Assembly (NCBI GenBank): GCA_008632985.1
Contig: QPGO01000132.1
Span: forward strand, 62,001-126,000
Reading direction: 5' to 3'
Source of the DNA: Psammoneis japonica
Lineage: Eukaryota
Length of the DNA stretch: 64,000 bases
Shown: piece after piece, positions 5,734 through 60,917 of the stretch
Layout of the letters: each line of letters opens with the position of its first letter
Position numbering within the stretch: position 1 is the first letter of the stretch
Notes under the pieces: model-generated
The model's input: the letters and a program-made list of their open reading frames with translations, nothing else
What the model was told of the DNA's origin: nothing
Databases searched by the model: none
Translations under genes and position numbers: made by a program

Positions 5734-6214
5734 CGATTCTCTCTTCTTCCTGAACTTAACACGCCCTTGGGTGTAACGAGCATTTGCTCAGTAAGCTCAC
5801 CCCATCATCTCGCTCTCATTGCGTTGAGCTTTGAAAGATTCAAGTAACAAATTCAAGTACGAGTCTGTTCTTTTCCCTCGTTTCAATCCTGGCACAACAA
5901 CTTTAACATGTCTTCTTCCAAGCCATGTAGAAAAACAGAATTTTTGTCGAGAACACAGAATTTCATCAAGAATCCTGAGGTGGCAAAGCTAGAGAGAGAA
6001 GCGCATAGCTAGTCTCTTCCAGCTACAGCACACTATGAATCACTGGATGAGTGTCTGCTCTAGAGAGTACAACTAGTTATAACGCGAAACCTCTTTTTTG
6101 CTTCGCTTGTCCCCATCGTCATTGCCGCGAAGTTTTTCCATCTCGTGAAAGTCCGATCGCATGGACGGACGGACGACATGGGACGGTTTCCGCGTCACCC
6201 CAGCAGCAGCTCCG

Positions 6215-7570
6215 AGGCAGGGGAGACTGGACAGAAGAAACTCTCAGCTGATGTGGCCCTTCTCAGACGGTGTTTTGCTGGGTCTCCCACAACCATTCTG
6301 GCCATTTCTTCTACCAAAGGTGCACCCTCATTTCAGCATGTCAAGCAATGTTTCTGTGGCAAGTGGAGAGCGAGATTGGGGGCATTGACTCATCATGGAC
6401 TCGCCTCACCAGCATCCTGTGGTGCTCATCCATCTTTTTTGCAATTTTCCTCATCAGATTCCAGGGAAAATTTTCTTCTACATGGACCTTCCAGCCACAA
6501 ATTCCCATGTGTGCCCTTGGGCAATGACCACCAACGAGTGCTTTGTCAAATCTCCAAAAGCCGCTTGCACCCATGTGCACATCTGTCCTCAACACATCCT
6601 TCTTCTTCTTCTTCTTCTTCTTTTTCTTCTTCTTCATTCATCCTGTCAGTCAGTCTCAAGTCCTTCACTCTGTTTGGTGAAAGTGCTGCCTCTGTTGCAG
6701 CACCAACAAGGGTGAGTGCAAGTCCTCCTTTGGCACCAATTGACAAGCTTCCATTTGCTGCATGCGCACCACTGGCATTTTTGCACAAGATCTGGCATGG
6801 TTTCTGCATGTGAAAAAGGTTTTTTTCTGATGATCAACTTCTCACATCATCAAGTGCTCTCATCTCTCTTCCCCCAGCCAGCCCTGGACAACCCTTCCAT
6901 CCTTTGCTCACCAACAAGTCAAGCTCTCTGCACTGTGCAACAATCTTTCTGCTGTTGTTGCACTGCCCAGAGTTGTGAAAGTGCCCCCCTTTTTGGCAAG
7001 CACCACTCAGTGGTTTGGCAGCCATGCTCTGATCTCACTTTTTTTGCTGATCTTAAGAGACAAGTTCATCTGAAAGCAGCTGATCTTTTTGTGCCATTGC
7101 AGCACACCAGCAGCTGTTGTGGCTGTTTCCAGACCATGCAAAAGCAACAAACTTTGCAAAGAGTCATCTCATTGCTCCTGGCTGCTTTGTTGGGGCATCA
7201 CCAAAAGGCAGTGCACAGCCCCCCAGCCAGCCCTTGTCCCCTTCTGCACTCCGCACAGCTGGCAAAGGAGTGAGAGCACCAAACAATCGGGTCTAATTTT
7301 CTTCCCCCCCCCCCCAATGACAATCTCCAAGAGGACCAGCTCTTTGCAGACACTGTGACTGTTCACCAGGGCTTGCAAGCCCCCTTGCTGCTCCCAGCTT
7401 GGCGGCGCTGTTGTTCTTGTGTGGCGCTGGCGCTGGAGAGCGGCTCTGCTGCCAGAGTGGAGAGGACAAATGCTGCTTGTGCAACTGCACATCTCTTAGG
7501 ACCAGCAGTTGCTGTCGTTTGAACTGGGGCACTTGTTGAGTGAGTGAGTTGGGTGTGGCGTGATTGATCT
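6215..7570 (-). mobile_element. Hypermutated (CpG/TpA-depleted) relic of an unclassified repeat, with a (TCT)n poly-Glu tract at 6598-6635
   Basis: TA and CG almost absent. The 6650-6840 segment (minus) resembles 39195-39690 (plus). Confidence 0.6.
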
Positions 7571-7886
7571 CATGCGCAAGAACTCGAAACTGCTGCCTTC
7601 GGGTTCACCTTGAACCTGATGCCATGTCAGACCCAAGTCCACGTTCGACTTTCTTCGAAACGCGCACTTCGCGTCGTAGAAAGCTACGTTGATCCCGTAT
7701 GCAGACGTGAGTCAGTCGTGTCAAGCTCGGTATGACAGCCACGAACCGATCAAAAAGGAATGCAAATACGGTACAAGGAGCCGATGCTTCCCAAGACACA
7801 AACAAGTGACGGAGATGAGACAACAGCAAGCAAATTGTGTCACTTGAATTATTCAGATCGCTTCGTGCAAGAATTGTAAAAACAAA

Positions 7887-13817: not shown

Positions 13818-13935
13818 AGGAACGACCATACAAAGATGACAGCACCGCTTCCCGTCTGCTCAGCGAAGTTAAGCATCTTCTGGCCCGGTTAGTACTACGG
13901 TGGGGGACCACGTTGGAATCCCGGGTGTTGTTCTT
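13818..13935 (+). rRNA. 5S rRNA gene (copy 1), followed by an oligo-T Pol III terminator
   Basis: 118 nt. The 5' AGGAACGAC pairs with the 3' GTTGTTCTT. Conserved CGAAGTTAAGC and GGTTAGTACT...GGGGGACC motifs. TTTTT at the 3' end. Confidence 0.96.
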
Positions 13936-14424
13936 TTTGCTGTTCTCCCCAACTAACGCACAATCGACAAAGCTGTCGTTTTTGTTTCCTTGCTGTTGTC
14001 GGCGGCCGTCGGTTGCCTGCGACATGTACGATATGTTAGTTGGCTTGCAGTTGGAGTCGCTCCTCACGTGTTTTTTAGTATCTCTTTTTTTAGCCACGTC
14101 GCGCGGGTTGTCAATGTTTGTACCTTCGTTCACCGTGCCCCGCGGCCCGCGGTCGATCTCCCAAGCAAGGAGTAAAGGGTGAGCTCTACCTACTCTCTAT
14201 CGGTACCGTAGTAGAGAGCTACTAGCTAGAGACGTCAACGCCTTCAGAAAAGACTGAAACGAACTAAAGAATGCGGGAGCAATGCTAATTGCATTGAGGT
14301 CAATACATAGTAATATTTAGGAAGTTATATTGTAGTCAATAACTTTTGGGAAATTCCATTCAATCGCCAGATAAAAGTATTGTACAGTAATGGCAGCGCT
14401 GCCGTCAGATTCAGCGATTTCTAT

Positions 14425-17240: not shown

Positions 17241-19164
17241 GGCTCGATTTTAGTCGATTGCGCTGGTCCTGCACTTGGGTTTCCTTCTTCGTACCGGGAT
17301 GAAGCACATGGCGTGCTCTCCTTTCTTTGATTCGTGCTCAGGGTCATGGAATGTTGTCAGACGGTTTTTCCCTTGGGCGTGGATTTACACTGCGACAGTT
17401 CTGCCATCATCGTCCGAGACATCGCAAGTTTGCAAAAGGCACCTCTTCCCCATCCCAGATGAAGCCAGCTCTTCCGAAGCTTGTCTTGATTTCCGCTGCA
17501 GACAACACACAGCTCATGCAATGTCAGCTGATTGGGATGTTCTGAATGAAATCTTTCATGTGGTTGGTTGCCTCTTTGAATTTCCGTCCTGAGAGCCATC
17601 AACAAGCACTCAAGTCGACGTGCAGGGGATCAAAGGACACCAAGACATCCAAGCCCCCTGCGAGTCATTGTCCCTTCTAGCAAAGATGAATGTCTGCATG
17701 GATTGAACATCAAAGGACATTTCCTGGCAGCACCTTGGTTGCTCCTTGGATGCCACATTGTTCTGCGAATCTTGCAGCTCAAGGTTTCTCCATGAGCTCC
17801 AAGTTTGGGTCTGCACTCTGATGCAAAGCATCAAGCCCAGCCCCAACCCTGCATGTGAAAGAGAAATGCAGATGAGCTGACAAGGTGTTTCAGTCTGTCA
17901 ACCAGCCTGCCCACTCCAAACTCATGTCTGGGAACATTCGCAGGAAAGTCAGCACTGTCAAGTCAGCTCAAGATCTTGTGCCTCCTGCCAAAAAGACAGC
18001 TTGCTGGCACAATCCCATCCAACCTGACTGCTGCATCCACTGTCAACTTTCTGGAAGACAGAGACCACATCTTGTGGTGCTCTCACAACAAAGCTTGGCA
18101 ATGCACATTCCTTCAAGCAAGGTTTGCATGAGAAATGTGGTGACATCAACAAGTCACCTCCTTTGCAAGACTTCCTTCTGGTGGCGCACTGGAATCTTGG
18201 TTCCACAAGGAATTGGTTTGTGCTGTCAAGCTTTGTCACTGTGCACCAGAGGCTTTTCACTCTCAGAAGCAGATTGGTTGGCAGCACTTGTTCAATGGTG
18301 GTTGATTTTCCTCTTGTTGGAACAAGGCACAACTCGAACATTTAGAGATGGTTTCCAGCTGTGACTCGCTCTGACACCTCCAGAGTGGATCAGGCAGAGC
18401 TGCAATTGGCAGCCACATCTGGTCTCAGTGGCGAGAATTGTGGGATCAACACAATGATGCAATTCATGGGTGGTGCTGGAATCTTGGTTCCATGTGAGGA
18501 ATTGGTTTGTGCTGTCAAGCTTCATTGCTGTGCATCAGAGGCTTTTCACTCTGAGAAGCAGATTGGTTGATGGCACTTGCTCAACGGTTGATTTTCCTCT
18601 CATTGGAACAAGGCACAACTTGAACATTGTTTGGAGATGGTTTCCAGCTGTGACTCGCTCTGATGCCTCCAGAGTGGATCAGGCAGCTGTGATTGGCAGC
18701 CACATCTGGTCTGAGTGGTGGGAATTGTGGGATCATCACAATGGTGCAATTCACATGGACATGATTCGGAAACTGGCAAGTTGTCAGTGCAACACCTTGA
18801 GACGGAAGTGGAGGTCATCCACTCATGGTGCAGCGACTGTTTGGCAAAGGATCGAGTGGAGCTGTTTGACTCTGTTGATGAGCACCCAACTCACTCCACA
18901 TGCAGGCTCAATGGGTTGGCGATGACAAGACCCGTGTTTAAATCAAGCACCCGAGAGGCAAAAAGGTTGGCTTTGCAAGGCACTCGTGCCATTGCCAGTT
19001 GCTCTGGTGCGACATCACTGTCAGGTGTGATGACGATTCAGGCTGATTGCCACATGCCCCTGCCACACTCAAGGTGCACTGGGGTTGTGGGTTAGCTTGT
19101 TTGCCAGAGTTGCGGGGTGGAAGCATGACAGCACTTTAAAAATAGATTTTGGGTTTTGTTTTGT
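17241..19164 (+). mobile_element. 5'-truncated non-LTR retrotransposon (Ambal-like: RNase H-like domain plus CCHC knuckle), hypermutated, with a 15-bp TSD
   Basis: Relic motifs GPALGFPSSYRDEAHGVLS, DLHCD, ADWDVLNEI, IKGHQD, CIHC..EDRDHILWC, IWSEWWELW. Direct repeat TAGTTAGTTTGTGTC at 17226-17240 and 19165-19179. Confidence 0.85.
18191..18759 (+). repeat. Tandem ~285-bp duplication inside the non-LTR relic
   Basis: Copies start at 18191 and 18478 (ggaatcttggttcca...). Many differences between them are TG<->CA swaps. Confidence 0.9.
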
Positions 19165-35083: not shown

Positions 35084-35322
35084 CTTGCTGACTATTCGGT
35101 AAAACGTGCGGTGTGTCTTTGCTTTCTCGATGATCTTACACCACAAAATCCGAACGCGCGATCTTTCTGATGTTGCGCGGCAAGGTAGAAAAAACGGCAC
35201 AAAAAAGGCACCTTACAATGACTCCAACTCTTGACCATGGCGGTCATCCGTAAAGCGAAAACGATGGGAAAGGACGGTAACGGGAACACCAAGAAAACAA
35301 CTCTTGTTATTGACATCATCAA

Positions 35323-35440
35323 AAGAACAACACCCGGGATTCCAACGTGGTCCCCCACCGTAGTACTAACCGGGCCAGAAGATGCTTAACTTCGCTGAGC
35401 AGACGGGAAGCGGTGCTGTCATCTTTGTATGGTCGTTCCT
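35323..35440 (-). rRNA. 5S rRNA gene (copy 2), identical to copy 1
   Basis: Exact reverse complement of 13818-13935, with a TTTT terminator. Confidence 0.96.
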
Positions 35441-38079
35441 ACTTGCGAGAGCGAAATTTATTTATATGAAGGCTGTAGTTGCAAGTTACGGCACGTCTGG
35501 ACGCCGTTGAACAAAACACGAGACCCCTGCACTGCCTGCTGCTCAAGAGCCAGCAGCAGCTGGCCACTCTCTAGAGTGGAGAGCAGCTCCAGCAAGAGCA
35601 GAGAGTGGTTGCCAAAATGTCCAAAGGCTGCATTTTCATCTGGACGTGGTTCTGTTGAAAATTTCGGCACTGCAAAACACGCGCGGAAAAAGCCGAGCAC
35701 TGTGCTGTGTTGGCTCAAGAGAGGTTGGGCTGCCGCGTGCCTGCTCACATTCATCCAATCATCTCTTTTCATTCACACAGGTTCCAAATTTGGAACACCT
35801 CAATTTTGAGCAAGGAGCATCTTGTCTGCCAGCACATTGACTCTGAGAAGTCATCAGGAAACCTTGCAATGGATTCAGCTTCTTCTTGCCAGCTGAAAAT
35901 TGGTGCTTGGTTTTGCACGATGACAGCCTGCATGTGGGGCTCACATGGCTGTTGAAAAAACAAAAACAAAAGCAAAAAAAAAACAACATGCAGAAGCCAC
36001 ACCAGTTTCTGTGCACACTCATGAACAGACTCTAAGACATCAAAGAGCAGTGCACAGAATGTGAAAAAAAGAACACGCACATGAGTGTCTTGATGGAAAA
36101 TGGCGGCATGTTTTGCGCCCTTTCTTTTTTGGCCATGTGCCACTGTGCACCAGATTTTGTCTCTCCAAAAGCCAAGAAGAGCACACACACACCAGCCAGG
36201 CACCAGTTTGAAACTTTGTGTGCTCATGAAATGTTTGGCGAGTCAGTTGGCAGAGGAGTGCTGGCATCTCATGGTGATGCAGGCACCTTGACAAAAGAGA
36301 AGGTTGCCATGCTGTTGTGCAGATGACGTGCAATGTGATGTTGCAAATCATCAAAAGAAAAAGCAAGTGAGAGGATCAGTGTTCATTCTGAGGGCTTCTG
36401 TGCAGCACCAGGCATTCAAAATTTCTTGCATTTGTTGGTGGGTTGTTGGATGGCACAGAACAGCAAACACAGCAATCTGAAGTGTTGCAGCAACATCAAA
36501 GTTGATGCCCAAGCACAAGTGGGGCCTGTGAGCACACCAAAGAAGAGTCAGAGGAGGCAGCTGTTCTTCAACCACGCAACCTTCTTGGCTTTTTTGTTGA
36601 TGATTGTGAAAACAAGAAGCAATCTTGGGATCTCTGTTGGCAATCTGGCCAGGCCAACAGACCTCATTGAGGTTGTCAGGGAGGCATTGCAAAACTTGCA
36701 CAAGAAAGCTGTGAGGGCTCAACTGTCTGAACAACTTTGGCCCAATGGCGCCAGAGCAGTTGGGCAATTGCAGCCACACTCAAGCTGACTGAGAGGCATT
36801 CAAAACCTGTCAACAAAGCTTTCTTTGGCTGCTTCTGGCACACAACATTTCCACCAATGGAGAGCTGGAAGAGGAGTGTTGCAAGGACGTTGACACACTG
36901 ACACTGTTGCTGAAAAATCATGCAAAGGTGATGAGACAAGATGCAGAATGGGTTTGAGACATTTTGGTGAGAGGCAGCAAGAACAAAGCACTTCAAATTG
37001 ACTCTTGAAGGAAAACCACATGATGATGCAGTGCCAGAATGTGCTGTGCCATCATGCTGCAACTGTCTTTTCACCCAGCTGCAGAGCAAGGGATGCTGCT
37101 GGTGCAAGCATGCACAGATTGTTGCAGATCTGATGATGTCGACCAATGGAGCCCACCTTGGTCAAATCCCAAGAGATGCTGGTGCAAACATGTGCACAGA
37201 TCAGACTGATGATGTTGGCCAATGAAGCCCACCTTGGTCAAATCCCCAATTGGACAAAGAGAGTGCAAGGTGATTCCAGCTGCTCTGGCACCAAGGATGA
37301 TCTGATTGAGTTGCTGAAAATGACACATCTGATCCCTTGCATTTTGACTCAATGAGAGGTTGACATCCACTCCACTCACTTGCCAAGACACTGAAAAACA
37401 CACCAGATGCCAGGCAACAAAAGAACAAAATGCTGAGTTGCCACCTGTCAAGATTCAAAAATTGGCAAGATGCTGCACCATGCAAAGGACTTGGGGGCAG
37501 AGTGCTGGACAGATTTGTCTCCAATGCCAAGGAGTGCAAGGAAGGTGACACAATGCTTTGCAACATGCTGAAGAAGTCAGCACTCAAAGAGCAGCTGACA
37601 TTTCTGCATGTGGAGAACAACACCAGTGGCAGTGGATGCACTGCTGAATCAATTGACACAAGAGGAGGAAGAACAAAAAACAAAAGGGCAAGATGGCAAC
37701 AGCAACAGTCAGCCCAACAACACAAGAGACAGGCCCAGAAGAGCAGCCAGAGCAATGCTGTGGTGCATCACTCTCATGGCAAAATGGGGCACAAGTTCCC
37801 AGACTGCAAACATTGAAATGACATTGCTCGCAGTCATTGGCTCAAGAATGCCAGAAGGAAGCTGGGCATTGGGAGACAGAGTTGTGCACAGACATGAGTC
37901 AGGAATGATGACTGCTCACACATTGGTGGATGGCAACAACATGAGCATTGACGCCACTGGATCCAATCAGTCAACCCACTTGGGCTGGAGCAGGAGTGCT
38001 GCACGGCACGGGTCACAGCTGGTGAATGAAAAACTGGAAATGTGTGAGCCAGCAAGCCAACATTGGCATCAAGACAGCT

Positions 38080-41000
38080 GAGATCATCCTCAACAATTGA
38101 GCGTGAGCATGCAGAAAGAGGGGATTTCCAACACTTGCAGCCCACACAGTTGTGCAACAAAGGAACGTTGACAGTGACAAGCACTTCAAGCTCACCTTTG
38201 AAGAATTTGTCCTGTCTTGTGTTGAGAACAACTTGATGAGCACATTGGACATGCACGGCATTGACAGCATGCCATGTTTCGACATTGCCAATGGTGATCA
38301 CTGCACCACAAACTTGTGACACTCAATGGGCAAAAACTTCTAAGTCCCTGCAAGTGCACTGTCAGACCCCTCACTGACACACACATGAGTGGTCAAGAAG
38401 ATGGCCACAGCACAAGGCATCAAAGGTTTTGATTTTGCAGGCAAGTGTGGAAACAACCTGCATGATGCTGATTGGGCCACAGGAGTGGCAGATGACAAAA
38501 GCTGCAAAGATGAAAGTGACAACAAAGAAAAAAAGCAAGCCAATGAAGATGAAACCAAAAATGTTGTGAAAAGATCCTGGCCAGTAGAAGATCCAGCCCT
38601 GATCAACAGCATGAGAACCAAGAAGCTGAGGAAGAGGGCTGGGCAAGCCAAAAAAGACAAGTGTGGCAAGCGGTCAGAAGAAGACAATGAAACCCAAGAA
38701 GGCACAAGATGGGGTGGAAGAGAAAGAAACTGGGGAAGAGGCAAGAGCCACATCTGCCAGAACAAAAAAAAAGATCCAACTTTCAAGTGCTGTCACTCCT
38801 TTGCCAGCTGCATGCCAGCACAGGCTGACCCACACTTCCAGTGCATGCACTGCAACAGTGCAGCAGAAGCCGGCATGGACTGGCTGGGATGGGCATCACC
38901 AGAAGGTGACACCCCACCAAAATGACTGAGAAGGAACAATTTGCACCTGGAATTGCGTGTTGGTGACAGCCACAGAAGGCACCCCACAGATGCAAAGGAC
39001 AGTCACATGTGCTTCCAAAACCAATGCTCATTTGAGTTCCAAAGCCACTCATTCTTGCACCAAGGAGAGCTGCGCTCACAAGAACATCACGGCCACTCAA
39101 AGGAGCAGTGAACTGGGACAGCTGGCATGCAAAGGAAAGATTGCACAGGACTTGGAGGTGTGCAGCTGGGAGCCTTGAAGGCAAGATGGGCAGGTCATCA
39201 GAAAAAATGTTCATCACATGTGGAAACAATGCCAGACATCATGCAGAAATGCCAACACATGCATCAAACAGAAAACAATCAACTGACACCAAAGGATGAC
39301 TCTTGTTCTTGCAGGAAAAGGCCACAACAGAGGAGAGTTGCTTTCACCCCAAAGAGCAAAAAACTTCGTTGAACAACAGAAAGAAGAAGTGGCATTGAAG
39401 ACCAATTGGCAGGAACAGAAGATGACCAGAGAAGTGCAATGTTGATCGTCAATGGCAACATTTGTCACATGCAGAAACAATGCCAGATGTCACACAGAAA
39501 TGCCAATGCACGTGGCAAACAAATGACAATCACTTGACACCAAAGGATGGCTCTCATTCTTGCTCTAAAAAAGCCACAACAGGGGAGCTGCTTTCACCCC
39601 AAAGAGCAAAAGACTTGGTTGAACAACAGAGCAAAGAAGTGGCATTAAAGACCAATTGGCAGGGGCAGAAGATGACCAGAGATGTGTCACACAGATCCTC
39701 AGCGGTTTCTGCAGAGATGGCAGAATTTGCACTGGAGCCTGTGCAGCAAAGTTTCTAAGATGACAGAAAATTGTGAGAAACAACAACACCACCAGCATCA
39801 TGCAAACCACAACAAGGCTTTGACACCCATCATTTTCCACTGAAGAACATTGCTTGTGATGCTGCAATGATGTTGCGCCAGCGGCAAACCATCTGAGAAG
39901 GGTGACATCAGCACAAGAAGTCACACAGAAATCCATTTGGAAGAAGCTGTGAATGTGCAGCTGACATCAAAAAGCATCAGCCAGAACAATCAGGTCTGGC
40001 AGATCCTTTGATGCTGAAGCACACATTCAGAAACACAAAAAAGCATGCTGAGAAAAGAAAGCTCAGTTTGCAGCAGGAGTGGCAGACAGCGCAAAAGAGA
40101 AGCTCAAACAAAACAGACTCAAATGCTGCTGCCATTTGCAAATGAATGTGAGCCCCAATCCAAAGGATGACATCAAGTGCGGGGTTGCTGATGTGGAAAC
40201 AGCAATGGTGCTGCTGGCGCAAGCAGTGATGTGCAAGATTGACAACCAAATCTGACCAGGAAAGGGCACCTTGGCACTTTTTTTTTTCAGCAACATTTGC
40301 TGCATGAAAGCCCAAAAGCATTTGGCTGGAAGGGGCATGTGATGACTCAGAGAAGGAGAGCAAGCAACTCTGTGACTGGGTGTGCTTTGCACCAATGTCA
40401 ATTGAAGACACAACTCCAACTGAGTGGGTGAAAGCTGTGATTGCTTCAGTGTTTCTGACAAAAGGGCAAATGGTTTGCAGTGGAAAACCAGCCAGACAAC
40501 AGCCAGACAAGGATGAGTCAGCCAGCTCAATGGCATTGTTGGAAGGAATGCCAATGACAGCCATTGTCAATGCTGTGGAAGAGCATGATGTGATGAGCGC
40601 TGGCACGCAAATTGCATTCATGCAGACATCAGACATTGACCGCCCAGAACCCAAGGAGGGTGAAGACCAGATCATGACAAGAAAGACTGCAGGAGTGTTG
40701 CTCAACATGCTGGTGGGCATTGATCCCAACCCACATGGGCCATTTGTGGTCATGGCAAAGGTGAAAAGAGTTCTCTGCATCTAAGTCACTGGAGCTGCAC
40801 ATGACATGCTGGTTGCAGCTCTGCTGTGACACAAACAACTTGGCAAGGACTTGGAGAAAATTTTGCTCAAATTCAACCCACATGATCTGTGCATTGCCAA
40901 TCAATCAGTCAATGGCAAGCAGCACACTGTGCATTTCCATGTGAACAACCTGCTGCCAAGCCACATGAGCCCAAAAGCAAAGACAAGCTCTCAAGCTGGC

Positions 41001-41600
41001 TTGACAAGACATGTGTGGAAGCCACAGCAAAGCTGCCACAACACAAGGAAAGAAGCACAAGAACTGCCTTGGATGGTTGTCCTGGACTTTGGTCACAAGG
41101 ACAAAGTGAAAGTTGACATGACTGACTGCTGCACTTGCAAGATGGTTTGTCAGTTCCAGGAAAAAATCAAGAACACAGAGGATGCTGCCATGATGCCAAC
41201 TGGAGAGGATCCATTTGACCCTGGCAGCGCGAGACTGCTGACCAACAAGAAAGCAAAGACATTGCATGCATGGGTGGCCAAGGGACCATTTGCATCTAAG
41301 AGAGGCTCCTGCATGGATGTGCGCCCCACTGTCACAGCTTCATGCACACAAGTCATGGAGCCCAGCACCAACAAGGGCTGGGAAAAACCAGTCTGTGTTG
41401 CATCAAGTGTTTGAACTGGACATGAAATGAAGTTGCTGTGCTGAGCACAAAGAGGGCCTCTGAGCAAACACCGCTGAGTTGTGGCTGCAGGCAACAGAGC
41501 AGTGCAGGCAACGTCAAAGTGCATCAAAAGCTCAACACCCAGAGCAGCACAGAGGCTGAACTCACAGGAGCCAACAACACAATGACCATGACTTCATTGA
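38080..41600 (+). mobile_element. Degenerate Ty1/copia (CoDi-like) pol: integrase tail 38080-38560, RT/RNase H ~39960-41600, interrupted by another element
   Basis: QRNVDSDKHFKLTF, LHDADWATGV, KGQMVCSGKP, FNPHDLCIAN..VNGKQHTVHFHVNN, HAWVAKGPFASKR, QKLNTQSSTEAEL. Confidence 0.88.
39205..39686 (+). repeat. Tandem ~230-250-bp duplication
   Basis: Copies at ~39205-39436 and ~39457-39686 (…gaaacaatgccaga…gaccaattggcagg…gaagatgaccagaga). Confidence 0.9.
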
Positions 41601-43026
41601 TCAAGGGGCACAGTTCAATGGGGGGAACTCACAAAAGCATTGAACAGTGGAGCACAGAAGCTTCCCAGTGTGTGTCCACTGCCATGCCAATGTGTTCCTT
41701 TTGCAATGATTGGGCTGCATCATTTGAACTGAATTGCGTGCCAGTGAGAGTGCACCCTTGACCAAGGAACATTGGCAAATTCTTGGAAGCCAAGCCAAAA
41801 GACAATGCAAAGCATTTTGTTGTCACTTCAGACAGCACAACAACATCAGCAAATGCAGCCACAAATGACAAAGAAGCAATTGGATCCAGAAGCAACAAGA
41901 AGCTGCAGTTGGCCCCAGACAAACAACATGGCATTGAAGGGTTGAGTGAGCTGTTGATGATGGTGAGTTGCCCCACCTGCAGCATGGATTCATTTGAGGT
42001 TTGTGGTCTCCTCATCTCCACTCAAGCAAAAAATCAAACCACTCACAGTGACTTGCAACCACCTGGACAGCATGGCAAAGCAGTGCCTGCCTGTGCACAA
42101 CAGACCTGTTGATGGAGAAGGCAAAAAGCCACCATCCTCAATGTGCTGCATTGTTGGGAAGCAGCACTTGTGTGTCAAAAAACACTGCCATCAAAATCAC
42201 CATCATGGCCATCAGCAGTGACTTCTGCTCCTGCAAAAAGCACCACAGAGCAGTGCCAGAAAATGATGCCAAACCACCCAGTGGTTCTCTGTGCACAGAT
42301 GAGTGCCAAGAGCCCCACAGAATTGACAAGCCATGACACACATGGCTCAGGCCAAGGTGCATGCTGCTGGAAGCATGTGTGCAATTTGCACTGCCAAATT
42401 TCACAGAAAAATGAGGCTCACAATGAACAAGATGGCAGCAGTGTGAATGAGCTGCTGAAACAAAGCATGCGCACATTGTGCCAAATGGACTTTGCTGCAT
42501 TGACTGATGTGATGTCATGGACATCTCATCATCTTCTGCATTTTTGCCAACAATCTGTCATGTCATTTTTGGCTCACTGCAAAACTGCACTTGATGGTTT
42601 GGGGAGCTGATTGTGTGCATGCATGGTTTCATGTGGCAAACCACTGCATGGTTTGTGGCAGGAGTGGGGTTGTGAAGAAGCTCAACACCAGCTGCGCTGA
42701 AGACAAAGCGAGTCATCTTGTGGACTCTCATGGCATTTTCCTTTGTCCGCAGTGGCACCAATCAAGCAAGGTCCAAGCTGGAATGGACTTGCCACTAAAA
42801 AATGTTGGAGTTCTTTGAGTTGACTCCTCCCAAGACAGTCAACAGTTGGATCATGGACCTGCTTGTTGGTCCATGCTGCAGAATCCTGTTGAAGAGGATC
42901 CATTGTGCCTGTGTGGAGCATTCTGTGGAGAATGTCTGAAGGACAACAGACTGTTCAATGATGTGGTTGATTTCTCCAACAAGGAACAGCATGCCCATTG
43001 GCACATTTTTCAGTGTTGCAATGGCA

Positions 43027-43594
43027 GACGTGTTCCAGTCCCAGGTGACACGCAAAACGACAATCGATTTTGAATGTAAATTATGTATCTATAAGTGTAT
43101 GGAGCATTTTCATATAAAATACTTAAGCGAATTGGCTTTTATAGGCGTCTAGAGTATGCATAATTATGAAGAATTAAATAGTTTTTTGTGGGGTATCAAA
43201 TTCCTCATGGAATATGTATCATAAACTTCCTCAGTAGACTCAATACTGATTGTACGTCCTTACTCTTTATACGAAAATTTCTTTGTAAGTAGCAAATATA
43301 CGAAACATCATCGTAGAAAGATATATTTAGTTAACATCCAAATAACGGCAATAATTTCGCCGAAAATCATCCGTTGTGTTACGATTCGTTTATCGCAATG
43401 AAAAACATTGATGGCACAATAACAATGATTTTGCAACACTCACACGAGTCTTGTTAGTGTTGCAAAACAATAGAATTTGAATAAATCTATACTTTTGGTG
43501 GTGAAAAACCGTTCGTAAGTCAGAGACCGCGCAAAAATCGCGCAAACATGTCGTTTTTGTGCACGATTTGGGTCACGTGCGGCTGGAACACGTC
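43027..43594. mobile_element. 568-bp non-autonomous DNA transposon (MITE) with ~23-bp TIRs and a 4-bp TSD (GGCA)
   Basis: Left end GACGTGTTCCAGTCCCAGGTGAC; reverse complement of right end GACGTGTTCCAGCCGCACGTGAC. GGCA at 43023-43026 and 43595-43598. AT-rich non-coding interior. Confidence 0.88.
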
Positions 43595-45158
43595 GGCAGA
43601 TGTGGCTGATGTCAATCTAGTTGCTGTTTCAGAGGGACCCAGACGCAGACCTCAAGGCTGTTGGTCCAAATTTTAAAACATTGATCATGCAAGTGGCAGG
43701 AGTGCATTGGAGCATTTAGATCACAGGCATTGCAAGGTGCTTGGATGTCATGTTGAAGGAAAGAGATGCTTTGTTTCCTGACATGGTTTGCTGGGTGACT
43801 CTCTGTGAGAAGAGCTTTGCCATCATCAGCCACTCACCTCTGTTTTTCATCTCATTGGTTGGATTGAATCATTTGGTTCATTTGATTGTTTGTTTTTCAG
43901 CATCAGCACGTGCCTGTCATTTTGTGAGTTTGCAGTTTACGTTGATGACTTTCAGCAACCCACAGCCATTGCAGATTGCCAAAGCAAGTGTGTCAAGTGG
44001 CAGAGCAGGAAGCCCAAAAGGACTCCCTTTTGGTGACATTGACTTGCTGACTCAACAGGACTGCAGAGGAGGAGCTCTCCAAGCATGCCAGTGGAAAGCA
44101 TTGGAGCACAATCAAGAAGAGGTTTGGCTTCACACAATTGGTAGCAGCCAGCATGCCACCTGGACTTGATGGTGCAATGTTTCATGTGCTGGTGGTCAGG
44201 GACAGAAGCAAAGCCAGGAATTTGGAGCTGGAGCAGTGCACTCTTTGGCGCTGCATTTCCAACTGCAGCGGACAATGCAGAGAGTGCACACTGCACAGCA
44301 GACAAGCCAATGAGTGTGTTGTCTCCTGTGTGCACCACCAGCACCAACGACATTGTGTTTTTGTGGGAGGCAATGAAAGAAGGTGATGTGAGCAGCACAT
44401 CTCCATGTGCTGAGCATTGGCAAACAAGCCACATTGTGTGAACATCACAACGAATCCAGCTGCCCTGCTGAGGAAGAGTGCAAATGTGGTGGCGTGCGTG
44501 CTGTCAAGAAAGCCAAGAAGTGGCAGACAAGTGACCCAAGTCACATGTGCAGGCCTGCAACCATGATTTGGCTGGCAGCAAGAACACCACCAAGTTTGTT
44601 CTGGGGGGGGGGGGGCAGCAGCACAAAGCTTGTGGTGCTCTCATTCCATGAGGTTAAATGTGAAGCTTGCGATGTCCACAATGCAGGTGCCGGAGGCAGG
44701 CAGGCAGCGCAGGACGAGGAGATACACATCCGCCGGAAACTGATAGATATCGCAGTCATAAGTATATCTAATTGCCCCCAAATGTCCGAGGCTTAGCTAT
44801 GATATATTCATCATTGAATTACTATCATTCAAAATTTATAAGATTTCAAAACACCGGCACTTCTACCCTTCCGATACAAAGATTTAATATGTACTAAGAG
44901 GATTTAGGTATCATATCGACGTTACTATCAAGGATTATTTGTCCGTTGCGGTGAAAACCCCGCGTAAAATTTGGTACTGTATGTACGAAAGTTACGAGCG
45001 GTCACAGACTTGTGAAATCATCCAAGAAGTAATCATCAAAAAATAAGTTGTCGACGTTCGTGCCAAATATGCCCATGGCGGAAGGTGTGTTTGCAGAACG
45101 CTTTAGAACAAAACACCACATAGTGATACTTGATACATAGAGTGCTTGATATCATAGC

Positions 45159-50362: not shown

Positions 50363-50574
50363 TCTTTATTCTTTTGTTCCAAAAAATTATTCTTGTACAG
50401 GAATTATTTCCTACTACAACCAAAGGATAGCTTGCAAGACTTTTTGACGTTGTGTGTCTTTTTTGTGTCGAGCAGATGATGCAATGATGTGTTTCAACAA
50501 CGTCTTGAGCACGAAACACTCACGGAGTTGTTTTGTTGTTATTGACGTGTTCCACATGGAAGATGGAATTTCGT

Positions 50575-52889: not shown

Positions 52890-55800
52890 ATCTCAGCTCT
52901 TATTTTCACAGCCTTTTGTGAATCTCTCTGCATCACCAGACCCCAGAACCACTTCTCATCACCCATCACAAGAAGGCAATTCCCTCTGCCAAGCCCCCGG
53001 TTGTTTTGGCAATGAACTGAGAAAATCACAACACTTCTTCTTCTGTTCAGTTCTCAGCAGTGGGATTGCGCTCAGCATGCAACTTGTGTCCCTTGCGAGA
53101 CGCAACCCACCTCCAAATGGCAGCAGAGCACCAGCCGTTTACACTTGCCTCCAAGCCCAGTCACAAATGCTTTTGATTTTTCCGCAATGCATCCACTGTT
53201 TGATGAAAGGTTGCTGCAAGAGAATGTTGCACCACTTTGCCTCCCAAAATGATGTCGAATCTGTCCATGCATCCAATGCCCGACACCTCTTCTTCACCAC
53301 TTCAAAGAATGTGTTGCACTCTGCTCTTGTCACATTCTCCAAGTTCTCAGCCACTTGCTGCTTGCAGTCTTTCAGTGCATGGATGCACCCATTTGTGAGA
53401 ACTCTCACTTGGCAAGTTCAGGGCTGTCAATGACAGTTGTCACAACCTCATCATGGAGACAATCATCACACTCATTGTTGACCCCCTTCTGCTTCATTGT
53501 CTCTGCCTTCAATTGGTCAAGACACTTGCATGGTGCAGGATCATGCTTTGTCACAAAATTGTGAAGCTCCTGCACATGCTGCTCTGAAAAAACCAACCCA
53601 TGTGAGCAATTGTTTTTTTTGTCATTGAGCTTCTTTCTGTCACCATCCACATGGCTTGCTTCATCCTGCTCTAACTGACTGCCAGTGCATTAACCAGAGT
53701 CTCAGCTGGGGCAAAGATGCTCATTTCCAACAGTCTTTTTGGTGGAAATGGGCAGTGCACAGATCTCTGCAGCCCACTTTTGATGCTTGGAAGCACAATG
53801 AAATGAACACTTCTCTGCTTGCATGAGAAAACATGCAAGCTCACCATGCAAGAACACATGTGTGTGGCTGCACTGATCACAGCACTGTGTGACAGCTGCT
53901 GGGGCTTGTGTCCCTTCCCATGCCAGATTGCAGAGACAACAATTTCTCACAGAAGAGTGCTCACACCACCAATGGCCAACTGCACCTGTTGACAGTTGGA
54001 GAGTTCCCAAACCCAAAACAAAGCACAAAATTTACATTTGAAGTGCTGTGCCACACCCTTCTGCCCAGAGACCCACACCCCCAGTGCCCTGATGAAATGG
54101 TTTGAGCACCTCAAGCAGCAAAATACCAAGTTTCTCAAATGCTCAGCTTGAGCACAAGCTCAAACATTGTCAGCAATTTTCTCAACCTCTGTGCACTGCC
54201 TGAGTGAGCAAGGCATTTGTGAGCCAAATGATGTGGGTGCTTTGTTCTTTGCCATGCAGCAACTTCCAATGATGCAACCACACCTTTGCTTCTGCATTTT
54301 GGCACAGTGGCACCTTCCCAGTGGTTTCAAAATCATGGCCATGAATGCCATCATTGTTGTGCAAGTTTCATGACTCCCACCATTGGAGCCAGACAAAGGC
54401 ACCAATTGGAGCCACTGACTGCCCAGCCCAGACACTGATCCTCCAAATCTGCCATCCAAAAGACAAAGCATGTGAGCTTCACTCTGCAAGTGGGGAAATC
54501 ATCCATTGAAAAGGTGAGACAAACTGTTTGGAACCTTTGACAACATTGAAGATGGCAAGTTCATTGGCATCTCTCCTGAAATTTAACTCTGTGCCAGTTG
54601 TTGACACACACAAAACATGCAAAGGTGAGCTTTTTGCAAGAAGTGCCAAGACAATGAGAACAAAAAGGACCTGTGCTGCCAGGCACCAAAAGCTCCAGGA
54701 CCAGAATGATTCAAACCAGAGGGTGCCTCTTGGCCCTCAGCAGAGATCAGCTGCAGAGCAGCCAATTGGGGGGTGCCTGAAGTTTGACAGAGATGATTCA
54801 CAAAACAATCCTGAAGCTTTGTGCATCATTGTTGAACAAGCACACATTTGGCACATTCAGCCAAGGTGACAGCAGAAAAACTGTGGCCAGTCAGAGCAAG
54901 GGGCAAGACAATCCTGGAACTTCAGATGCAAATGTCCCACATGCCAAAGCCTCATGGGAAAGAAAATCCCTTGAGGAACACCCCAAACCTGCCGACAAAT
55001 CTGAGAGTGCACTGTCTAAAAATGGTGCCAACAACACACCAAGAGGAAGTGGCAATTTTTTCTCAAGCATGTGACATTGGGTCAGCAAGCATCTGCAGAA
55101 AGAACAGTGACAGAGCATGATTTGCCAAAGCCATGAGAATGACATTCTTTTGCTTTTGCAATGACAACCTTGAACAATGTTTTAAGTGCTGACATCAAAG
55201 CAATGGCAACTCTGCCCAATCAATGTGCAAGAAGAAACTGCAAGAATCTGAAGAACAGAGTGTGAGAGGCATCATCAGAGGATGGAGGATCTGCAAGCCC
55301 ACATTGACTTGTGGCCAACTGAGTGTCTGGCCAAATGTTTTGACAACACATGGAAGACCTTGCTGTTCTCAGTGGAAAAGTTGGTGGCCAGCAAAGGATG
55401 GTGCAAATCAGAAAATGCCAGTCAACAAGGCAATGAGAGGCATGAGGTGGCTGAGCAACTCTAAAACAAAAACTCTGCAAAAGCTGCTTTCATGATTGTG
55501 AGTGGATGTCATCTGCAACTGTGACAAGCAACAACAAATGCAAAGGACAAATGACAGATTGGGTCTCACAATGCATGATGACCCAGTTGATGCAGGGTGG
55601 GAATCACAGAGAGATGTGATCCTCAACTTTGTCAGGAAGTCCAAAGCATCAGCAGAGGCCACTGGAGAAACCTTGGAGGAGGCAGCCCCCCTGCTGGCTG
55701 CAAACAGCCATGCCACTCAATGAAGAAGAAGCATCAATGTGGGACAGTCTGCCATCTTTTAAGTTGCACTGCAAGCCATCATTTGTGGAAAAAGGAAAAG

Positions 55801-58800
55801 ATCCAGCCAGGCCAAGCAGACAGACAATGTGGGCTCAGCTGAGTGGCAAGGCAGGAATGCGTGCAAGAGCCACAACTGCCTGCAGGTTGGTTGTGAACAA
55901 CAGCGCAAATCCAGGAAGAGTTTGCTCTCAACATGAGACTCATGTGTTGTCTCAAACAAACATCAGACATCAGAGACAATTTTTGCTGGACAAGCAGCTC
56001 TCAAGTGCAGAAATTGAACAAAATGGCAGGACCAAGGAGACCTTGCTCTTGTTCTTGGAGGAGACTCAAATGATGGTGTGGGAGCCACTCCCTTCTAAAC
56101 ATGGGCAAATGTGCTTTGCACAAAGGTGCAATGACCCAGAGGCACCTGTCTCTCCCATCACCAGTGCACAGCATTTTGTGGCAAGAACTGCTGGCTGGGT
56201 GTGCAAATTGATGCTGTGCTGGCTTCATCAGCTGTGGAAGTTGGCAAAGAAATTGCAGCTGGCTTTGGAGACTTTGACTGCACCTCAGATCATCAACTGC
56301 TTTGGACAGATCATGAAAAGGTGAGTTTGTCTGGATGACCTCTGCTTTCAGCATTGTCCGGGTTGACAACAGACCAGCTGGCAGGCAAGTTGCACAAACT
56401 GAAGATCTCAACAAAGCACCACAAATGGCATCAGAGCGTGCAACATGGTGATCAGACAGACTTTCTTGTGGTGAATTTTTTTAATCTGTCACAGTTAAAA
56501 ATTTTTTGTGGTTTCAAACCTCATTGGTTGTGTGCGTGGTGACAATTTGTCAACTGTGAAAGATGAGCTTCATTGCTGTGGAGCCCGCAACTGTCCTGTG
56601 AGGCAACACCATTCACTGTGAAACAGCCCACCATTTTCCCTGTGAGAGTGATTCCTGCAAAACCTGCAATTTAAAATCATTTGCATTGCAAACATTCCAT
56701 TTTGTTGTTTGCGCTTAATTCAAATGATGCAGACAGAGACAAAGGCTTGTCAATGAATTCAAAGAGGCGATGGCTGAATTCCAAGAGAAAGGCACAAAGC
56801 TGATGCACAAAATGGTGGAGAGCCGGAGCTCACTGCAGCAAAAGTGGAGTGCACCACCACCTTCGTAAGTGCAAGCTTGGACCTCTTTGAACTCTGCTTG
56901 CACTGCCACGCAGTTGAGAGCACAATCTCAATGCCAAGACACAGCAAGCAATCCAAACACAACGCCTTCAAATGAGTGACACTCTGTTCACAACGGCAAA
57001 TCATTGCAAAGAAGTGCAAAATTTTTTGTGAGAGTGCACGGGACAACAACAGCAACCAATTGAAACTGCAACACAGACTTGCTGGTGCATCTGCGGTGGC
57101 AGATTCGGTCACTTCTGCCGCCAGTTCCCGATCCCGCAAAGCTGATTCTGGACCAGTCAGGTGAAGCAACATTGCTCTGATCCACCTTGTTCATTGCAAA
57201 CAAATGAAAAATGCTTTGTGAGAGTGTGCAGGACAACAACAGCAACCAATTGAACAAAGCCGCAATGCAGACTTGCAGGTGCATCTGCCGCCGCCGATTT
57301 TGGAGCTTCTGCTGCCGGCTCCCAACCCATCGACATGGAATTGGCAGCTGCTGCGGTTGTTGCAGTTGACCCCCCCTGCTCTTGACCACAAACAGCAGAG
57401 AAACTTGGGAAGCCTTTTAAAATGAGCCCAACAACTCAGGCAACCTCCAATGGGTTGCCTCCCCACTCTCTGCCTCTGCAGTCTTTCTGGATCTGGATGC
57501 AGAAATTGGAGAAGACGGATGCAACGTAAGTGAACACATCAAAAACAAATGAGGCTCTTTTCGTGCATGCCTTTTTTGAAGAGTTTCACATGTGGCAAAG
57601 AACTTTTCATGCGGTGATTCTGAGAGCTGCAGGAACAAGCACCGCCTGCAGTCTTTCTGGATCTGGACACAGAAATTGGAGAAGACAGATGTGTTGTTGG
57701 CAAATGTGTCAAAAACCAATGAACCTCTTTTTGCACACACCTTGTTTGAACAGTGTAATTTGTGGCAACTTGTGACAATTCTGGACGCAAAACTCTGACA
57801 TGCGCGATTGTGCCAACACTGCAGAAAAGCAAGTTTGTGATGTGCGTGCACACAACACACAACAACACGCCAGAGCTCAGCATTCTGGACATGGCAGATT
57901 CGTGACACCACACTCGCGATCCCAAAATTCAAGCTGCACCCAAATAAAACCCCATCTTGACCAACCAGAAGCATGTGTTGAGCCACTGTCATTGGCCAAT
58001 GGGGCAAAGTCTTTCACCGCCATGGCCGGTTGTCGATTTGCAGATTTGCAACCACACACAGGATCCACGTGAATCACAACAGCGCATGCTCTTGTTTTTC
58101 AAACTTTGGGGAGAGGGTGTGCTGTTGTGAAGTGTGTAGAAAATTGCGCATGTAAAACATGCACTGAAAATGCCACAGAGCAACGGGCTGCGCAAATCTG
58201 GGAAACATGAAGAAAAATGAAGGTGGGTCACGTGCATGCGCGAAGTGCTGCAGACTGCACACGTGCAAAGACACACACACGTGAGTGAGGAGGACAAAGT
58301 TAAAACCAAGTTCAAATTGATTGTGATCAAAAGGAAACCAAACCATGCATCACAAAAAACAGATTTTGATCCCAATTAAATTGAACATTGCACGCATTTG
58401 ATTGAAGCTTGTAAAAGAAAAGTCAATGAGACATCAGATGAAATTCAAGAAACAGCTTCATTTTGTGGAGCACTTTTGCTGGCAATTTTTCAATTCTGCT
58501 TGTCAACAATTTGGACAATGCACATTAAAAAAATTTACAAAGGAAAGTGGATGCCACTGTGTTGCCACCTCTGATGGGGTCAAAAGAAGCTTGAGCATGA
58601 CAGCCTTCTACCAGAAAGAACAATGACTCTCATGAGCAGCACAGATCATTTCAGAGGATGCGAGGAACAACTTGAACACAAGACACTCTTCTTCTTCAGA
58701 AGCAATGATCTGTGACAAGAGGCAAAGTGCAAGTGTGGTGTTGCAAGCTCCACATGAATAAAGTTGAGTCAAGCAATGCAGCAAACAAGGCAAGAAAGGA

Positions 58801-60900
58801 AATCCAACCACACGGCCACTTGCAAAAAAACTTTGGCACAATCAGAGAGCATGTCTTGATGCCACTCATTGATGAGTGCACTGCACACAAAATGATGTGG
58901 GTGCCATGGCATGTCACTCAAACCAGATTGTGGCACAGCACCTGCAAGCAACAACAAGAGAGTGCTGCAAGCCAAAAAAGGAAGCCAAAGATCTGCAGCA
59001 AGTGGAGAGTTCAAAACACAATGTCCACAAAGGGTGAATGCCAAAGGAGCTGCACCCAAACACAAAGAAAAAATGATTGACCACAACTGCACAATCAGAA
59101 AAGAGCCCACCACAGAGTCAAGCAAGCTGCTGGGAAAATCACACTGGCTCTGCAATGGTCACAGGGGGGCAGGAGAATCAAGCACAGACAAGGTCTTGTG
59201 GGCCAAGAGTGGCATGGAGAATGAAGAATGCAAACATTTGCAAAATGGTTGAAAGCTCTCCTTTCATTTGGGCTCCACTCTTCCAAATGACTTTGGATGC
59301 TCCACAGGCACAGAAGCAGCAACTTTGGTGCAGCTTGCATCAAATCCTGCAGGGAGTTGAAGAGCATGCAGTGAAATTTGTCAAACAGCTCAAATGACGC
59401 TTGTGACAGACCACACAACACCTTTGGCAAGAACAATGTCATGGATCAAGTTGTTGCAAAAATTCTACTTCAATTGCAACATTGATTTTCTTGCTCCCAT
59501 GCCAACTCTTTGTCCTTCTTGTTGAGTCAACAACAACTTTCTCATTGCAGTGTTTGCCAATTTGGGGTGCAAGAGGGAGCAGCTTCTCACAAGACAAACA
59601 TCTGCCAATTTTGTGGCAAAAAGCAGCATGCTTCTGACATTGCAAGAGTGGTGGTGACAGGGCTGGAATCTTGCCATGCCACTGGAACAGAGAAAAATGG
59701 TGTGACATGCACTGTGGCTGGCCAAAAGCAGGACACCCATCAAGATCTTGTTGGAGAGACTTTGGCAAGAAGAAGCATTCACAGCATGATGTGCTCTCTG
59801 TCAATGGGCCAGAACCCACACCTCTCCCACCTGCGCAAACACAAACTGGACAAGCAGATTTTCAAACCAATTTCACCCTGGTCACATTCCTTGGCAGATG
59901 ATGGAGATCACAAAATGCTTGATTCTGGAGCAGAACTCTGCTGCACAAGACTGCTGCTGCAAAGATGTGGCCAGCACAAGCAGGTGTGTTGCCTTGCTGG
60001 GAGGACAGAGGTGCCACCAGATGACACACTTCCTGCAAAAGTTTTGACAGAGTGGAGTTGAGATTGCACCCACAGGCACCAGTTCATCTCAGCTGACCAA
60101 GAGGGCTTGGACAAGTGGTTGTTTGTGCAGCACAAAGCACAACCAATGGTGGAGACCGCACCTGCTCAAAGAGTTTGAGCAGGTGCCACGCTGTGACACA
60201 AGCATTGCTGATGGCTCCTTCAAAGATGCCATGGCAGCAGCAGCAATGATTTTGCCCCCCCCCCCCCTTCCAAAGGACACTCTTGCAGATGCCACGGAGT
60301 TGACAAAATGCCAGTCCAGAACTCAGATTTTGCTGCTTGCACTTTAGAGGTGAGCTTGTGCAGCACTTGCTTTGCAATGAATGCAATGGTCAAAATCTCT
60401 TTGACACAGTTCACTGGATTCAGAAAGTGATGCAAGCAGCTGTGCCTGCATGTGCCAACAAGGTCCAAGGTGTGTGTGTTGAGATCGAGAAGTCGCCAGC
60501 TCAGCGACCTCACACTTGTTGGTCCGCAGTCTCCTGGAGATGCTGAGCGTGGAGGAGATGGATTGAATGACCAAACAATGTAAAAGAAAAATCTGGACAA
60601 GTCCTCAGAGAGGTCGTCCTTGCCATTTTCTGTTTCACACCTGTGCTTGTGCTGCAAGCAAGTCGCTCTTTTGCAGAGAAAAGAAAGTGCACTTCATCTG
60701 TCCAACACCAGCAGCTGACACAGCTTGCAAGACTTTGCACCAATGTTTTGTGTCTTTTTTCGTCGAGCAGGAGCAGATGATGCAGTGATGTGTTCAACAA
60801 CGTCTTGAAGCACGAAACACTCGCCGCGGTGTTTTGTTTCATGTGGACGTGTCCCACATTGTGGAGGACGCAAGCAGCGTGCAAGCAGAGCACATTTTTC
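52890..60900. mobile_element. Hypermutated transposon block between the duplicated segments; includes an Ambal-like non-LTR relic at ~58600-60500 (+)
   Basis: TA/CG depletion. Relic motifs VTGG..KVLW, WPKAGHPS, IADGSFKDAMAAAA, FRGEL. Short internal duplications at ~57000/57190 and ~57475/57645. Confidence 0.75.
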
Positions 60901-60917
60901 ATTTTGGGATCCTGATC

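Follow-up and report, generated by a model that had tools for sequence, protein, structure and literature searches.

Why should a dead retrotransposon have lost every tyrosine from its reverse transcriptase (RT), and what kind of mutation would leave histidine or cysteine in their place? The question is raised by a relic of a copia-type RT in a 64,000-nucleotide stretch of the genome of the diatom Psammoneis japonica (GenBank assembly GCA_008632985.1, contig QPGO01000132.1, positions 62,001 to 126,000 of the forward strand; hereafter the window, in whose own coordinates all positions are given). A sequence-only reading of the window had placed such a relic at 40380..41600 and proposed that its Tyr codons had been systematically turned into His and Cys codons by changes of TA to CA or TG. 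Our analysis indicates that the RT relic probably lies in one of several blocks hit by dinucleotide-specific transition hypermutation of chromosomal DNA. The earlier reading proves correct on the direction of change and on the identity of the relic, and too narrow in its scope; the loss of tyrosine is only the protein-level shadow of a removal of TA and CG that spans non-coding DNA, three other blocks and some of the flanking host DNA.

Four blocks, 19,647 bp in sum, stand apart from the rest of the window. TA occurs at 2.7 per kb in the blocks and at 41.5 per kb in the rest of the window, and CG at 10.6 and 56.2 per kb respectively, while the density of CA and TG together is 227.4 per kb as against 144.4; the combined loss of TA and CG (84.4 per kb) is thus matched by the gain in CA and TG (83.0 per kb). 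A profile along the window at one-kilobase resolution shows four zones in which the observed/expected ratio is 0.00-0.12 for TA and 1.6-2.3 for CA and TG. For CG the ratio stays at 0.02-0.23 across the greater part of each zone, rising at 57-58 kb and at the zone edges; CG loss is uneven among the blocks, with about half retained at 56.5-58.5 kb, while TA is nearly gone throughout. The edges of the blocks are sharp to tens of bases: the 7.5 kb from 35572 to 43077 hold nine TA, and beyond 43077 TA occurs every few bases. Chance is excluded at the block level as the cause of the scarcity of TA in block 3, which holds the relic. The coordinates of the blocks and of the features discussed below are collected in Table 1.

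Table 1. Hypermutated blocks, relics of the copia element and associated features in the window (L numbers, metagenome loci; P numbers, homologs; aa, amino acids).
Feature	Position	Strand	Remarks
Hypermutated block 1	6081..7676		5 TA in 1.6 kb
Hypermutated block 2	17387..19092		3 TA in 1.7 kb
Hypermutated block 3, left part, holding the copia relic	35530..43023		9 TA and 53 CG in 35573-43023; CA/TG about doubled
Hypermutated block 3, continuation past the insertion	43620..44654		4 TA and 9 CG in 1,035 bp
Hypermutated block 4	52902..60760		32 TA and 76 CG in 7.9 kb
Copia-type RT relic	40308..41414	+	single frame; 0 Tyr; HVDD reads HVNN
Gag-like relic of the copia element	37337..37954	+	tblastn, L001 aa 184-410, E 2.5e-8; match of P0028 weaker
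Relic of the integrase C-terminal region and acidic tail, holding LHDADW	38128..38805	+	L011 aa 613-749, E 1e-7; L029 aa 836-1091, E 1.5e-6
RNase H relic, start	41477..41650	+	tblastn; frame differs from that of RT
Tandem duplication, units of ~250 bp	39207..39746	+	between integrase and RT; 6 CA/TG double changes between copies
Tandem duplicate in block 2	18189-18466 / 18476-18753		7 CA/TG double changes
MITE-like insertion, 574 bp	43024..43597		26-nt terminal inverted repeats, 43024-43049 and 43572-43597
5S rRNA gene adjoining block 3	35322..35440	-	Rfam 100.8 bits
5S rRNA gene, copy A	13818..13936	+	Rfam 100.8 bits

The identity of the relic was established by protein searches. With the translation of 40830-41414 as query, phmmer against 1.84 billion representative proteins returned 334 proteins at E ≤ 1e-3, of which 28 reached E ≤ 1e-10 and the best 7.9e-25; all nine of the hits that were scanned belong to the Pfam family RVT_2, seven exceeding its curated cut-off and two falling below it. 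Each of the 17 hits of at least 600 residues aligns by tblastn to 40320-41411 on the plus strand in one frame, the best of them (P0002) with 34% identity over 344 residues (E 2.5e-48). Because the scanned phmmer hits carry RVT_2 and the alignments run in a single frame, we identify 40308-41414 as the relic of a copia-type RT, in agreement with the initial proposal. Its closest relatives are long gag-pol open reading frames (ORFs) of aquatic metagenomes. The relic has no frameshift across 1.1 kb and two in-frame stops (TAA at 40782 and TGA at 40827), and the catalytic Asp-Asp motif of its homologs has been lost. Neither RVT_2 nor any other Pfam family was found in 40308-40784 or 40830-41414, even at E ≤ 1, and Pfam detected no transposon domain in ten relic ORFs or in the longest ORFs of all blocks; the silence on the RT relic is likely due to the distance of the family from the RVT_2 profile together with hypermutation. 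A search for homologs of the relic ORF gave 42 word-sharing candidates, none of them at E ≤ 1e-3; no predicted protein of another mutated copy thus emerged as a close relative.

The long gag-pol ORFs of 25 metagenome loci, used as tblastn queries, show that the gene order of copia is kept on the plus strand, with gag, the integrase C-terminus, RT and RNase H colinear; the integrase C-terminus and acidic tail (38128-38805) match at E 1e-7 to 1e-5, and RNase H at 41477-41590. The protease and the integrase core, about 420 residues, are missing between 37954 and 38128, and roughly 1.5 kb of extra sequence separates integrase from RT. Self-comparison of the window, both raw and with every pyrimidine-purine (YR) dinucleotide merged into one symbol, found no pair of long terminal repeats (LTRs) and no flanking direct repeat. 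By its sequence, then, the RT relic appears to belong to a rearranged, dead retrotransposon of the Ty1/copia type.

The fate of tyrosine was followed in an alignment of the relic with 29 homologs, each spanning at least 280 of its residues. Eight columns hold Tyr in at least 70% of the homologs; the relic retains Tyr in none of them and carries His in four, Cys in two, and Val and Leu in one each (codons CAT, TGC, CAT, CAC, CAT, GTG, CTG and TGC), whereas it keeps the consensus residue in 60 of the 98 non-Tyr columns conserved to the same degree (Fisher p = 8.7e-4). Tyrosine has therefore been lost more often than other conserved residues, and six of its eight replacements are His or Cys, as had been suggested from the letters alone. 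Over its whole length the relic has no Tyr among 369 codons (mean of the homologs 3.4%, range 0.3-5.0), its content of Cys and of Trp lies above the entire homolog range, and that of Arg below it. The loss of tyrosine follows from the absence of the TA dinucleotide across the block.

Tallying Arg and NTA codons against the homologs, as the sequence-only reading had advised along with Tyr, gives a congruent result. Three of nine Arg columns conserved in at least 50% of the homologs are kept, and five of the six that changed now read Gln, His, Cys or Trp, the products of CGN becoming CAN or TGN; conserved Leu columns have turned to Pro four times and to Ser twice (NTA to NCA), and conserved Ile to Val in five of six columns. 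Altogether, 29 of the 93 mismatches at conserved columns can be derived by a change of TA or CG to CA or TG, starting from any codon of the consensus residue in the relic's own sequence context; when the consensus residues were shuffled among columns 2000 times, the mean was 5.6 (sd 2.2, maximum 14). Among the motifs from which the loss of tyrosine was first read, PHGPF, VLCI, AHDML and FNPHD do fall on conserved Tyr columns. MVCSGKP does not, the consensus there being other than Tyr and Tyr being found in a single close homolog (P0004), and LHDADW (~38450) is ambiguous, with Tyr in P0010 (IYDSSW) and His already present in P0032 (IHDEAW).

Duplicated sequences inside the blocks reveal how individual sites were resolved. 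Five in-block tandem-duplicate pairs have CA in one copy and TG in the other at 22 sites, which account for 44 of their 119 substitutions, and differ in addition at 12 CG/TG or CG/CA sites and at two TA/TG sites; two control duplicates in the same window contain four CA/TG sites in 227 substitutions and four in 392. This discordance implies that TA and CG sites were resolved independently after duplication and on both strands. Merging the YR dinucleotides raises the identity between duplicates, 87.3% becoming 93.1% and 76.4% becoming 87.8% in two examples, and it reveals homology of block 1 with block 3 and of block 2 with block 4. The duplication at 39207-39746 is related to a segment of block 1 (6571-6913), in inverted orientation.

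The change was polarised at the level of DNA with the help of 80 copia loci from metagenome contigs, obtained in a scan with an alignment of 12 homologs. Their TA observed/expected ratio ranges from 0.25 to 1.09, and none of them is, taken overall, similar to the blocks of the window. All eight conserved Tyr are kept by 59 loci, and six have a single His or Cys in these columns; L045 has three and L043 five, while L039 reads as a stop followed by HCHCCHH, with His or Cys in all seven remaining columns. L039, whose contig bears the name of a microbial-mat metagenome, has one reading frame of about 560 codons with a single stop, and it is without TA between positions 470 and 1521. Five intact relatives of this locus in the set, at 82-89% nucleotide identity, allow ancestral states to be assigned, the ancestral state being the one common to at least 75% of at least three of the five, and each relative being judged against the other four. 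At the 33 ancestral TA sites located at 207-1497, L039 now has TG in 19, CA in 12 and GA in one, and has kept TA in one; before position 207, five of six ancestral TA sites are kept and one is TC. Sites 1538 and 1544 were excluded as lying past the end of homology at ~1503. The intact relatives keep 27-34 of 33-44 ancestral TA. For ancestral CG, L039 keeps 34 of 59 and the relatives 28-35 of 43-58. This conversion of TA with CG untouched indicates that the TpA process is separate from CpG decay. With homology stopping at ~1503 and the first TA standing at 1521, no more than about 20 bp separate the end of the tract from that of the copia fragment.

The comparison shows a TpA process that is polarised from TA to CA or TG, acts on both strands within a tract and runs nearly to completion in L039, against an ordinary divergence of a few percent; the direction first proposed from the Tyr codons is supported here independently of the protein alignment. 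The process is not confined to the genome of the window, other samples carrying it in graded doses.

The mutated region also takes in DNA of the host. The two 5S rRNA genes of the window are identical over at least 107 bp and have about 370 bp of upstream flank in common. At block 3 this flank is free of TA from ~35529; that of copy A, at 13.5-13.8 kb, is rich in TA. Aligned TA sites in the flank have become CA in 14 cases, TG in 11 and CG in three, with one kept, in an alignment made on YR-merged sequence, which tilts the count towards this result; a raw local alignment of the two flanks gives the same pattern over 35529-35607. Block 4, for its part, stands between the two copies of a 2.5-kb tandem gene duplication (50285-52793 and 60559-63072, ~81-82% identity) that encodes a MATH-BTB-BACK-SAP protein, its 7.9 kb separating one copy from the other. 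Relative to the unmutated copy (50285-50480), seven of eight aligned CG and six of seven aligned TA are changed in 60559-60760, and the coding part of the duplicated gene (61101-63072) has changes without direction. Mutation thus leaks about 200 bp into the flanking duplicated host DNA, as well as into the 5S upstream flank. This leakage, taken with the intermixture of CA and TG outcomes, argues for action on chromosomal DNA in place and not on a retroelement intermediate. Four of six TA sites in 60761-61100 would hint that block 4 continues there in a 'TA-only' form, but this is too weak to claim.

Block 3 is interrupted by an insertion resembling a miniature inverted-repeat transposable element (MITE), beyond which TA-free sequence restarts at ~43620 and ends at ~44655. 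The element itself is unmutated, with TA and CG at normal density. In contigs reassembled from sequencing reads its depth is 5,500-11,400, as against 56-70 in its surroundings, an excess of about 100-200 times; the insertion is therefore a high-copy element and, being unmutated, either postdates the mutation or escapes it.

These contigs derive from one public run, which contains 0.96 of the sampled words of 39500-42500; they span block 3 as pieces of 0.6-2.1 kb, each with 0-4 differences from the assembly, and their word depth of 56-73 is that of single-copy sequence. The runs X2 and X3 give almost no cover of the block. Inside the block, assembly and read contigs differ as CG/CA at 35683 and 35891, and by two bases, TG in the assembly and CA in the read contig, at 36086-36087 and 44178-44179; all of these fall in the class of site that the block-wide change affects. 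The TG/CA differences are what one would see had two haplotypes or strains resolved one ancestral TA or CG site independently. Of 721 read-derived contigs placed, 411 are 90-95% alike, which indicates that related sequence is frequent in that genome.

The sequences compared here establish the direction and the specificity of the change, its strand symmetry (CA:TG outcomes of 14:11 in the 5S flank and 12:19 in L039), its organization in tracts, the separability of TA from CG and its action beyond the sequence of the element. To account for them we propose a model with two processes. In the main one, TpA would be converted to CpA or TpG by an A:T to G:C transition on either strand, chosen independently at each site, in sharp-ended tracts and nearly to completion; because the change on the first strand abolishes the TA site, one change per site and few CG double hits would result. 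The second would convert CpG to TpG or CpA, as from the deamination of methylated CpG in silenced transposons. Both would drain into the same sink of CA and TG, with CpG decay adding its component over time. At the protein level TAY would become CAY (His) or TGY (Cys), removing every Tyr, while CGN Arg would become Gln, His, Cys or Trp, and NTA Leu or Val would become Pro, Ser or Ala, and the element would be killed.

The agent may be a dedicated enzyme aimed at transposon chromatin or at repeats. The two chemistries that we consider most likely are deamination of the TpA adenine by an enzyme working on DNA, and oxidation or other modification of the TpA thymine, such that adenine would come to pair as guanine, or thymine as cytosine, on either strand; the function would be genome defence in the manner of fungal repeat-induced point mutation (RIP). 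We put forward, with rather less than even confidence, the proposal that diatoms and aquatic or microbial-mat relatives have a dedicated defence mutator that works on double-stranded chromosomal DNA and, through A:T to G:C transitions, erases TpA in kilobase tracts of transposon DNA. It is a tentative part of the same proposal that such a mutator would be a natural DNA editor of adenine at TpA, or one that modifies thymine.

The 53 TA sites that survive in the blocks give some indication of sequence preference. Their 3' base is A in 36 cases, where 15.7 would be expected if they had arisen as new mutations from the blocks' CA and TG sites (p = 2e-8), and T in none, where 10.7 would be expected (p = 9e-6); the 5' base mirrors this pattern, and the contexts TTAA (16 against 3.5 expected) and CTAA (12 against 3.3) are the most prominent. 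This suggests a preference beyond the dinucleotide, with TAT/ATA most susceptible and TAA/TTA least, to which new mutation in A-rich sequence may contribute.

Several points weigh against the proposed hypermutation. Of the 93 mismatches at conserved columns of the RT, 64 are left unexplained by the TA and CG processes; these are ordinary divergence or decay, and part of the pattern could accordingly have accrued slowly. The sparing of the high-copy MITE-like element disfavours a simple rule under which every repeat would always be mutated. On its left side the L039 tract stops (~207) within the region of copia homology and not at its edge, and this and the spared element together disfavour a simple homology-length rule of the RIP kind. 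Because the 80 metagenome loci were found through intact peptide motifs, a search biased against mutated copies, the three hypermutated copies among the 80 are not a frequency. To the tilt of the 5S-flank alignment already mentioned is added a doubt about the confirming run, for which no library type is recorded: the assembly may itself have been made from it, so that it provides a reassembly rather than a second, independent sample. The cases from metagenomes belong to unrelated assemblies.

The explanation that survives best beside the proposed hypermutation, and one that we consider unlikely, is a slow chromatin-bound decay in which 5-methylcytosine deaminates at CpG and a chronic lesion or modified base mutates at TpA, with no dedicated mutator. 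Such decay fits the uneven loss of CG in the presence of a near-total loss of TA, and the large share of ordinary divergence among the conserved-column mismatches; the CG/CA and TG/CA polymorphisms between assembly and reads imply that some conversion is recent or ongoing, and the bias of residual TA towards TTAA and CTAA, never TAT, is as would be seen with context-dependent rates. Slow decay is hard to reconcile with L039, which has lost 31 of 33 TA over a 1.3-kb tract while maintaining one long frame, 82-89% nucleotide identity to its relatives and a CG decay like theirs. It sits equally poorly with the RT relic, which has no frameshift in 1.1 kb, with the all-or-none state of the blocks in the window and their edges sharp to tens of bases, and with the untouched younger insertion inside block 3. 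Mutagenesis at WA motifs of the Pol-eta type, linked to mismatch repair, was rejected: AA is undepleted, and the TA of L039 has been erased without a change in CG.

If the RNA or cDNA of the retrotransposon were edited prior to integration, by an enzyme like ADAR or APOBEC, the element would arrive already mutated. The blocks do contain retroelement relics, and the L039 tract stops where the copia fragment stops; we nevertheless regard this explanation as very improbable. Editing of a single strand would give one type of product, whereas the two strands are hit about equally and the outcomes are intermixed (TG 19 and CA 12 in L039; 11:14 in the 5S flank). The mutated zone moreover includes flanking duplicated host DNA and the upstream flank of the 5S gene, and tandem duplicates and non-copia sequence in the same block are mutated as well.

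An error of sequencing, base-calling or assembly at modified bases, with 5-methylcytosine read as T and modified A as G, would go in the observed direction, and the sole run that contains the stretch may consist of the assembly's own data. Such an artefact is scarcely credible given that the block reappears, at an even depth of 56-73, in contigs assembled independently from the reads, that the relic bears many other changes and stops, that each site is cleanly CA or TG with discordance between duplicates, and that the same pattern recurs in unrelated metagenome assemblies. Selection against TA and CG in a functional class of transcript or sequence, for which the joint scarcity of CpG and UpA in RNA viruses would be a precedent, is the least probable of all, because the element is dead, with stops and lost catalytic residues, the CA/TG discordance between duplicates marks a mutational origin and not conservation, and the mass balance of lost and gained dinucleotides is exact.

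Among known systems, fungal RIP, as seen in Neurospora and others, offers a close parallel to the hypermutation proposed here. Both operate at the level of DNA, on transposon or repeat DNA and on both strands, through dinucleotide-specific transitions; both produce near-saturating tracts with some leakage into the flanks, graded doses among copies, and inactivation by missense and nonsense changes. In RIP, C becomes T, chiefly at CpA, and TpA is thereby created. The process in the window runs in the opposite direction and has a different target base, destroying TpA by A:T to G:C changes, and a high-copy MITE-like repeat inside block 3 is spared by it. The pattern apparently follows a RIP-like logic with a different chemistry and a specificity that has not been described.

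The decay of methylated CpG is matched by the change of CG to TG or CA, by its unevenness among blocks and by its polymorphism, and CG decays alike in the mutated and intact copies of the L039 family; unlike such decay, the process in the window removes TA more completely than CG, and L039 loses TA without loss of CG. With APOBEC editing of cDNA and ADAR hyperediting of RNA the pattern has in common clustered transitions that inactivate retroelements. These systems affect a single strand and stay within the element, whereas the process in the window hits both strands and the flanking chromosomal DNA. ADAR-type editing changes A to G with a preference for a 5' U and also for a 3' G; in the window the surviving TA sites are TAA and never TAT, which differs from that 3' preference.

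With respect to the element itself, the copy in the window resembles the Ty1/copia elements of diatoms (CoDi; PMC2806351) in its RVT_2-related RT and in having integrase upstream of RT, and differs from them in being dead and rearranged with no LTR pair found. A term search of that paper turned up nothing on RIP, dinucleotides, deamination, degenerate copies or point mutation, and 'transition' solely in unrelated senses, and term searches of two further papers (10.1101/2025.10.24.684338; PMC8147415) gave nothing relevant on such hypermutation. Another study states that diatom DNMT4 enzymes are related to fungal RID, their function being unknown (PMC9998398). A search of full text, with subscription journals and supplements outside its reach, found no prior description of the pattern in diatoms or elsewhere, and an earlier one is possible. 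To our knowledge, transposon-directed hypermutation of chromosomes is known mainly as fungal RIP, and the established natural hypermutators of DNA all act on cytosine.

If the proposed mutator exists, it would mirror fungal RIP in function and would be without precedent outside the fungi. A major group of marine algae would then possess a genome defence of a new kind; the mutator would explain the killing of transposons in diatoms and would provide a handle on the role of RID-like genes and of genes with deaminase or oxidase folds in these organisms. It could also point to a natural enzyme that edits adenine in DNA. For annotation, the blocks are misleading with respect to both genes and repeats, through long spurious ORFs in six frames on which Pfam is silent. 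TAA and TAG being nearly absent, stop-free ORFs run in all six frames across 35600-44650, the longest of 267 aa (39977-40780, minus strand), and none of them is matched by Pfam.

Some further features of the window may be recorded. Blocks 1, 2 and 4 gave no convincing match to copia proteins by tblastn. The last part of block 3 contains a homopolymer of 13 G at 44604-44616. ARAGORN found no tRNA, and the 107-bp repeat of 100% identity corresponds to 5S rRNA. Upstream of 5S copy A, the stretch 13480-13740 is unusual in being rich in TA and full of CTAG, GTAG and TACCGGTA; the TA observed/expected ratio of the kilobase around it is ~1.0, as against ~0.55 elsewhere. The unmutated parts of the window hold ordinary eukaryotic genes with few or no introns, which encode ABCG transporters, protein kinases with EF-hands, a multicopper oxidase, a subtilase, E2F/DP, BTB-MATH proteins and a DUF6824 protein. 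Two of the protein-kinase genes (8164-9599 and, in inverted orientation, 21055-22496) are paralogs with ~72-75% identity, one of them being fused to EF-hands (ORF 19642-23046).

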